A stretch of 63,033 nt of DNA, filler included, from Stramenopiles sp. TOSAG23-6 (taxonomy: Eukaryota), in NCBI GenBank assembly GCA_900128565.1. It is 12 parts of 12 records of this genome, joined end to end, with 100 filler letters (N's around TTAATTAATTAA, not from the genome) between each part and the next. Parts side by side here need not be neighbours in the genome. Positions count along the whole stretch, not along the records: positions 1 to 5,188 come from LT636958.1; 11 more parts are not named here. The stretch is one strand, 5' to 3'. Below, one piece after another: positions 60 through 1,616 of this stretch. Both the position numbers and the translations under genes were made by a program. Below the pieces are notes generated by a model. The model ran no database searches. It saw only the letters and a program-made list of their open reading frames with translations, and had not been told where the DNA came from. How positions within the stretch are numbered: position 1 is the stretch's first letter; every line of letters starts with the position of its first letter.

Positions 60-1616
60 AATTCTTCGCTGACATTTTCCAGGGCTGCTTGGACTTGTTT
101 TATATCATCTTCATATTTTCGACGTATTTCTTCAATAATCGAATTTGATCTTGTATACTCACTTTCAAAATACTCTTTTTTCTTTTCTACTATTTTCAAT
201 TTACTTTCCACTTTTTCTCTCTCTTCCTTTGCTACTACATATATGTGAAAAAATATTTCAAAAAAAAATCTAAAAAAATTGTTAGGTACGAAATTTCGTA
301 TGAAACAAAAATTAGAAATTCATATAAAACATACAGCATTTTGTTGAGCTTTGTCTTTATTACTTCGTAGGTCTGTAATTAATGAATTTAAACGCTTTAT
401 TTCCCCAGAGAAATATGAATTACTACTATTTCTAAATGTTTCTTCGTCATTACTACTATTTTCTGATTTTAATTTGTCGACTTTGAGTTGCAAAATTTCA
501 TTTTTTTCTGATAATGATTGTATTAATTTATCCTTCTCTTGAAGAACGACAAGAATTTTTTCACTTCGTTTTTCAGCTGCTTTTTTCATTGTTGAATGCA
601 CTGTGAAGAAAATGTCAAATTTGAAATTTGTTAGGTATAGAATTTGATACGAAAAAAAAAAATGAATTTGAACAATACAGTTGAACAATACATTTGAACA
701 ATACAGTTGAAGATTTGTAATGAAAAATGAAAACGTATATTTATTGTGAAAAAAAATATATATTTGAAATTTGTTAGGTACAAAATTTCGTACGAAAAAA
801 AAAAATGAATTCGAAATTAAAAAAAAAAGTTGAAAAATGAAAACGTATATGTGCCGCTTCAACCGTGGACGATTTCATCTTGTAATGATCTATTTCTTGT
901 TTTTGTTGATATATTTCTTGTTTATGTTGATCTATTACTTGTTTTTGTTGATCTATTTCTTGTTTATGTTGATCTATTTCTTGTTTATGTAGGCTTATCA
1001 AGGTATTTTTAGATTCAAGTTGTTGAAGCAATTGTTCAGATGAATTGAAAGTACTGTCTCTATTTGTTACTGTTTTTGCTACATTATTGGCAGCAACTCT
1101 ATGTTTTGAGGGAACTGAACTAGATAATGTTTTACGTGCATCTTTGAGACTTTTGGTACTTATTTGACTGGTAGTAGCAACCATCTGCTTTGTTCCCGGA
1201 ACAGCACGGTTGAAACTCTGGCTTTCTTTATGCGATTTCGATAATTCTCTTGTTGATGTTTCTTTTACCGTCTTTTTTTTGGTTATTTCTTTATTGTCTA
1301 GAGGGGCAAGAAAAAAAGTAGCATGGAATTTCTCGTCAAAAAAACGACTACGGATATGGAAAGTATCACGCTGACCAGATTCTCCACGTGAACGATTTGC
1401 AAACTTTTCAATGTATAAAGTTACCTTCAGTGATGTATTGGCATTTGCAGCCAATGTAATTTCCGAAGGTGAAACAGTGTACCGACCAGGAGAACCAGGA
1501 CGTACAGTAAAATTGATAGTACTGGCTTGAGTATTGACAATGCGTACATGCTTGATATACCTCTTTTGAAGGGTCACTCCATGGAACTCAAGCTCCTCCG
1601 GATTCACACGAATCAT
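60..1616 (-). CDS. PapD/MSP/ASH-like Ig-fold N-terminal domain plus long coiled coil (probable centrosomal/ciliary protein); 3'-partial. Exons 1616-849, 595-335, 238-60
   Basis: ORF 774-1616 N-terminus (VNPEELEFHGV..VRIVNT..FTVRP..YTVSPSEITLAA) fits an ASH/PapD-like fold. Removing the family introns gives a continuous frame ..EAAH|STMKKAAEKR..QQNA|VVAKEEREK.. Confidence 0.7.
239..334 (-). mobile_element. Introner-like intron, GT...AT
   Basis: GTATGTTTT...CATACGAAATTTCGTACCTAAC...TTTCACATATAT; phase-0 removal restores the coiled-coil frame. Confidence 0.8.
596..848 (-). mobile_element. Two head-to-tail introner units (848-739 and 738-596), both starting ATACGTTTTC
   Basis: Each unit has its own core and 3' tail; removing both gives GCA CAT|TCA ACA ATG. 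Confidence 0.75.
886..990 (-). repeat. 21-bp coding tandem repeat (EIDQHKQ heptad, ~5 copies)
   Basis: TTGTTTATGTTGATCTATTTC-like units; translation KQEIDQHKQEIDQQKQVIDQHKQ. Confidence 0.85.

Follow-up and report, generated by a model that had tools for sequence, protein, structure and literature searches.

Recursive splicing in Drosophila proceeds through ratchet points, zero-nucleotide exons with an AG/GT motif; the introns concerned measure 11–133 kilobases (kb), the removed segments 2.6–64 kb, and both junction reads and lariats were seen (10.1101/006163). Fungal stwintrons, e.g. in Lipomyces, consist of two U2-like units that are removed consecutively by intron definition, and one fungal complex intervening sequence can be removed in one or two steps (PMC7138796). 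In Micromonas CCMP1545 there are nested or merged Introner Elements whose internal splice structures are gone after merging (PMC3879977). Introns ending in AT are common in the tunicates Fritillaria borealis and F. pellucida, where a YAY triplet precedes the 5' site and also closes the intron, ends are mostly AG/AC and AG/AT and U2AF is duplicated (PMC13326754); non-canonical repeated introns were reported for Amoebophrya (PMC7789003). Here we describe a pair of abutting introns at positions 596–848 (minus strand) of a 63,033-nucleotide (nt) stretch of DNA from Stramenopiles sp. TOSAG23-6 (assembly GCA_900128565.1). The whole stretch, referred to as the window, consists of ~5.2-kb pieces strung together by N linkers, and adjacent pieces are not necessarily adjacent in the genome. 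From the sequence, our best reading, favored with slightly better than even confidence, is that an intron was duplicated in place, leaving the two copies separated by a zero-length exon, and that they would be removed in two steps.

The doublet is confirmed to be present in the assembly. It interrupts a gene for a coiled-coil protein with an MSP domain, all parts of which are read on the minus strand. Exon 1 (849–1616, 256 codons) ends in CAT and is followed by unit 1 (739–848, 110 nt) and unit 2 (596–738, 143 nt), both delimited by family alignment and frame, and by exon 2 (335–595, 87 codons), an open reading frame (ORF) like exon 1, of which residues 7–30 are conserved in relatives. Both units start with the donor ATACGT and end in AT; their branch heptamers are located at 780–773 and 637–630, in each case 34 nt from the 3' end. 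As the original prediction had it, two complete units abut at 739/738 (848–739 and 738–596): in the sequence AAAT/ATACGT the 3' end of unit 1 touches the donor of unit 2, leaving a putative zero-length exon. The borders are exact, and the inner donor is intact, as are the branch and the 3' end of each unit. The claim that both units share the same rare start was borne out as well. Within the window the 18-nt start that they have in common is found only twice, at units 1 and 2, and none of 31 single introns of the same family, described below, starts with AT. Likewise, the reading frame survives only with both units out, whereas removal of either alone or of neither results in stops. We found no candidate for a micro-exon of a length divisible by three at the inner junction with AT, AG or AC and GT, AT or GC ends. 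Compared with the family consensus the core of unit 1 has no mismatch, that of unit 2 four. Unit 2 also carries an expansion of a 13-nt tandem repeat (668–711) and an AG at 601, 5 nt inside its 3' end, a position at which few family members have AG (unit 2 and 8066–8156). The 3' decamer of unit 1 is also the in-frame outer end of the intron at 31842–31987. Exon 1 contains, close to its end, 5 copies of a 21-nt tandem repeat in the coding sequence (886–990).

As at a Drosophila ratchet point, no exon separates the 3' splice site from the 5' splice site that follows it, and the final mRNA would be the same. Unlike in Drosophila the junction is AT/AT instead of AG/GT, the total length is 253 nt instead of more than 10 kb with segments of 110 and 143 nt, and the origin appears to be a duplication. 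By analogy, the doublet would be a small-scale, AG-free counterpart of a recursive-splicing ratchet point. Of the earlier claim of a zero-length exon with recursive splicing, the juxtaposition without an exon stands; the removal in two steps is inferred only, and no listed RNA contig spans the locus. With the complex intervening sequences of Lipomyces the doublet shares its shortness and its construction from two intron units. Stwintrons are nested and their order of removal is forced, whereas the units here lie side by side, could leave in either order and have non-AG ends; a strict stwintron identity was rejected, each unit keeping its own three uninterrupted signals. Like in Micromonas, two copies of a repeated family lie in one intervening sequence, but unlike the merged introners the doublet retains all inner signals and exact borders. 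Common 3' AT ends and the YAY triplets are shared with Fritillaria; abutting pairs are not described in the accessible part of that report.

A profile scan detected 59 cores of the intron family in the window, on the sense strand, that is, many sequence-similar introns in unrelated gene positions, as is typical of introners. From these cores and one copy in a metagenome contig we curated 31 single introns by hand, excluding units that were cut by gaps, lacked clear ends or had two cores. They are 88–113 nt long with 32–47 nt between branch heptamer and 3' end. The 5' start is GT in 29 of the 31 and in no case A; the 3' ends are AT (24), AG (5), AC (1) and TT (1). U12-type (minor) introns have the donor RTATCCTT. 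A minor-intron identity was rejected, since the donors of the family are GTAYGT-like (GTACGT in 13/31, GTATGT in 12/31). G is found at +5 in 30 of the 31 singles. The preceding exon ends in AT in 20 of 30 singles, which splice-site preference could explain equally well as target-site duplication; only some introner families have target-site duplications or terminal inverted repeats (PMC9860276). A hairpin before the branch is feasible in most copies, with many breaks and little covariation. The core stretch before the branch (e.g. 800–773, minus strand) contains two overlapping palindromes, in which one double change in unit 2 of the main doublet preserves one pair and breaks two others.

The AT ends are genuine for the family, because a polyA contig starts its match at the position that such an end predicts and because a GT-to-AT cut restores a conserved protein pattern. 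The contig match begins at 3965, after 12 unlike letters, with the nearest AG at 3954; this single, indirect junction fits a GT...AT cut and not a shifted AT...AC cut. Removing the introns 4827–4736, 4282–4188 and 4060–3966 yields one long open frame. In the SDS22 gene, cutting the intron 2854–2953 (plus strand) from GT to AT regains the W-L-N pattern of homologues. The SDS22 ORF (1902–2909) shows 100% identity, along 94% of its length, with the public protein model P0001, whose source name starts with GSMAST32, a label that we take to denote the MAST-3 stramenopile group. The model runs into the intron and loses a conserved SDS22 stretch. The gene that carries the doublet contains next a single family intron (239–334, minus strand) of the GT...AT type, and the frame is kept with that end. 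Two neighboring introns of one gene, 4282–4188 and 4060–3966 (minus strand), lie 127 nt apart and differ in 4 of 95 bases, one difference being a GC versus GT donor. Judged from the sequence, this near-identity suggests local copying or conversion.

In collection scans the core pattern had no match in viral contigs, one locus in metagenome contigs and one chance match in prokaryote genomes, inside a bacterial gene. The metagenome locus (MDTB01012742.1, 2514–2533, minus strand) is one complete single family intron in a gene absent from the window. The abutting-doublet pattern was not found in metagenome contigs, an orthologous locus of the doublet was not found in the collection scans, and Rfam gave no match within the window.

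Exon 1 matches the Pfam family Motile_Sperm with E 7e-5, short of the curated cut-off, and exon 1 alone detects 182 relatives at E ≤ 0.001. For the motif comparison we used the 77 relatives of at least 200 residues among the 150 listed of these 182. Residues 7–30 of exon 2 gave a match scoring at least 35 in 26 of the 77, which had been found via exon 1 only, compared to a mean of 0.33 and a maximum of 6 for 200 shuffles and a maximum of 3 for 75 other 24-mers of the window. Because the exon 2 motif recurs in exon 1 relatives far above the shuffles, we assign the two flanking exons to a single gene and reject a two-gene chimera.

This bears on the collapsed or misassembled join which the original prediction had itself raised: an exon with a length divisible by three, located between two related neighboring introns, might have been lost in amplification or assembly. 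We consider this quite improbable, yet it is still a rival. The site is bridged by no independent listed contig, the window consists of ~5-kb pieces on linkers and contains a perfect 761-nt inverted duplication as well as the misjoin-like region 28326–28115, near-identical neighboring introns with an exon between them do exist (the pair differing in 4 of 95 bases), and the homology register is compatible with missing residues. However, a collapse at a shared core would be expected to yield one fused unit and not two whole ones, and the units differ in 13 of 73 aligned bases and by 33 nt in length. Furthermore, one gene is found on both sides, and offset 0 ranks with the best registers. Divergence of the units and the one-gene flanks make the scenario less likely.

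The original prediction had offered two origins, local duplication or re-insertion at the element's own AT end. Units 1 and 2 match exactly at three anchors: 17 nt starting at +2, 17 nt ahead of the hairpin and 11 nt behind the branch. Among 465 pairs of single introns, none has all three anchors together, and 11, 0 and 2 pairs have them singly; the anchor sum is 45 between the units versus 25 for the best single intron. At the three anchors the units are reciprocal best matches, and they have in common the A at +1 and the distance from branch to end. By global alignment score unit 1 ranks first for unit 2, while unit 2 is not first for unit 1 because of its insertion and altered core. The 73-nt 3' blocks align without gaps, and since they differ at 13 positions the pair is not a fresh assembly copy. 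Because the units are mutual closest relatives at the three anchors, an old local duplication is supported by sequence comparison, and re-insertion of a distant copy is not supported for this pair. The ancestor would have been a single AT-ending family intron in which A had already replaced G at +1. It could have been copied in place by slippage or unequal exchange between the CAT at the exon end and the CAT at the intron end; as exon 1 and unit 2 both end in CAT, slippage would copy exactly one intron.

A different origin, compatible with removal in two steps, would be mobility: an existing intron would have received a mobile copy at its AT end, through a local hop or with later gene conversion. 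The AT exon ends preceding 20 of 30 singles in the window make an intron end a matching insertion target, the units of another doublet (15402–15625) are unrelated (8 of their 18 first bases are alike), as independent insertion predicts, and a local hop at 596–848 would resemble duplication in place. On the other hand, the two units share private traits including the A at +1, which is present in no single intron of the window, and we regard an insertion as improbable here.

For a duplicated intron with a zero-length exon, the spliceosome would match a donor to whichever branch and 3' end lie closest to it, resulting in two steps of free order. If unit 1 left first, exon 1 would be placed before an identical donor; if unit 2 left first, an ordinary single intron would remain. 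Both orders would yield the same mRNA, so the doublet would be nearly neutral and could last while its inner junction functions. We infer both the spliceosomal nature of the splicing and its two steps; junction and mechanism are unproven. Two-step removal is favored on indirect grounds, because the single introns are short and uniform, as nearest-site pairing would predict, because the unit 1 core has 0 and the unit 2 core 4 mismatches and because the inner donor is intact. In the three other doublets proposed for the window (15402, 27500, 28326) the branch or 3' end of the first unit is broken and the second donors have drifted to ATATGT, GTCTAT and CTACGT.

Alternatively, the duplication could be real but the pair spliced out in a single step that runs from the 848 donor to the AT end of unit 2 (596) via the unit 2 branch, with a silent and decaying inner junction. 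The resulting mRNA and frame would be the same, introns of 146–187 nt with two cores are in frame as single introns elsewhere in the window, and merged Micromonas introners are described as having lost internal splice structures (PMC3879977). Yet such a removal would bypass a zero-mismatch core with a normal 3' end for a four-mismatch core. It predicts decay in the unit 1 core, whereas the substitutions are all found in the unit 2 core. The last C of the first branch was missing from 3 of 6 multi-core introns, compared to 3 of 31 among the singles (post hoc Fisher p 0.04), but not from the main doublet. Overall we think a one-step removal rather unlikely.

Very improbable, in our view, is a single canonical intron of 244 nt from GT(844) to AG(601), which would add three codons and leave the AT boundaries unused. 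It is in frame, and an AG at that inner position is rare in the family. Its donor GTTTTC, however, lacks the G at +5 that 30 of 31 singles have, and the homologue profile score over 8 residues is -7.0 compared to 0.4. RNA contigs ending at 4825 and 59 stop where the +1 donor predicts, the 4825 end being compatible with several cuts.

Returning to the in-place duplicate with two-step removal, a number of points weigh against it. The frame test is blind between two introns and one 253-nt intron. An A-initial donor was present in none of the curated singles. The contrast between the main doublet, in which the inner donor is identical to the first and the signals are intact, and the other doublets rests on n = 4, and the perfect core of unit 1 could stem from gene conversion or youth rather than use. 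The exon starting at 30772 has a donor-like start (GTATGTTT) and EF-hand-like coding, so that an exposed donor need not be reused. Assembly artefacts are present elsewhere in the window. In the register across the junction, offsets -4 and +11 equal offset 0, and shuffling gave p = 0.03, 0.07 and 0.25 for 8, 12 and 16 residues in what is a weak test. For positions 1–5188 the aligned contigs came from 4 of 14 listed runs, three of RNA and one of DNA; none of the listed DNA or RNA contigs bridges 596–848, and none of 15 listed joints, beside 428 unlisted ones, lies at the main locus. Likewise, none of 330 and none of 4 candidates among transcript-derived proteins crosses the junction.

The DNA contig pieces 352–532 and 901–1822 match both exons at ~99%, with none listed over 533–900; a hole in such an alignment proves nothing and this one counts neither way. 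In one DNA run 6938 records aligned, almost all upon family cores. The summed depth was 47,760 over the unit 1 core versus 72.7 in the bin containing the unit 2 core, values that do not represent copy number.

Beyond the single locus, it is possible, though we lean against it, that introns of this family are routinely duplicated in place via the border AT repeat, giving AG-free ratchet points and everyday recursive splicing at a scale of ~100 nt. The doublets of the window would then be stages of one cycle (intact pair, decaying inner junction, long two-core intron), and 2–3 nt between copies would lead to pairs or arrays of micro-exons. If confirmed by RNA, the doublet would represent recursive splicing at the smallest scale, free of AG and with its origin visible as an intron copied beside itself. 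It would also offer a neutral route to ratchet-point gain and intron lengthening, and doublets at graded decay would directly test proximity pairing by a spliceosome under a relaxed AG check. If removal takes place in one step, the doublet would merely be a by-product of a repeat-like intron family. Independent of this, there is a consequence for annotation, as the public model of the neighboring SDS22 gene misreads a family intron. The literature search, which reached few subscription papers, found no account of non-canonical or abutting introns in MAST-3; the accessible part of a paper on MAST-3 assemblies mentions gene prediction but not unusual introns (PMC5778133). Nor did we find a description of intact abutting non-AG introns, although the supplement of PMC3879977 may show abutting introners.

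Similar doublets had been proposed at three further sites. The resemblance holds loosely for the first two, with decayed inner signals. The doublet at 15402–15625 (plus strand) combines a degenerate first unit (15402–15536) with an intact second unit starting with ATATGT. Its frame holds only if the entire doublet is removed, or with the second unit out and read-through to a stop; the core of the first unit has mismatches at 10 of 24 positions and the unit ends in AA. Its two units are unrelated by recent duplication. The doublet at 27312–27500 (minus strand) has a first unit with a changed branch (TACCTAAG) and a shortened 3' end and a second donor GTCTAT without G at +5. It is in frame across the 10 nt available before a gap. 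The first 18 nt of its units are alike at 16 positions, compared to 15 for the best single intron, and the sequence may represent a second, decayed duplication. No such resemblance was found at 28326–28115 (minus strand), where the first unit has no branch and the doublet as drawn does not keep the frame, meeting a stop after 7 codons; with an alternative AT end at 28110 the frame would be open. This region is likely a misjoin, because it connects a truncated sulfatase ORF (profile positions 2–247 of 301) to a region matching fucosyltransferase, via two long T runs.

Duplicated core modules had been proposed at four sites. Those at 31842–31987, 51736–51550 and 62867–62717 each proved in frame as a single intron with a second core. 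The fourth, 12114–11906, is out of frame with the given end, whereas an AT end at 11898 would fit; it overlaps the perfect 761-nt inverted duplication that flanks a gap (10562–12084) and is probably an amplification or assembly artefact. The intron 51736–51550 (minus strand) ends in AG, has two cores that are nearly identical and carries a pair of telomere-like CCCTAA units right after the donor. A further two-core intron, absent from the original prediction, is located at 51039–50904 (minus strand) and is in frame as one intron.

Pfam domains across the window (formin, PUF, WASH-subunit, SAP, sulfatase) indicate eukaryotic content. At 49642–50402 and 52269–52334 family cores occur with no clear donor or 3' end and with no open frames beside them, and these stretches are apparently non-coding. 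The exon 30772–31017 (plus strand) is 246 nt long, a multiple of three, and opens with GTATGTTT immediately downstream of an AT intron end; re-splicing could skip it without a frame shift.
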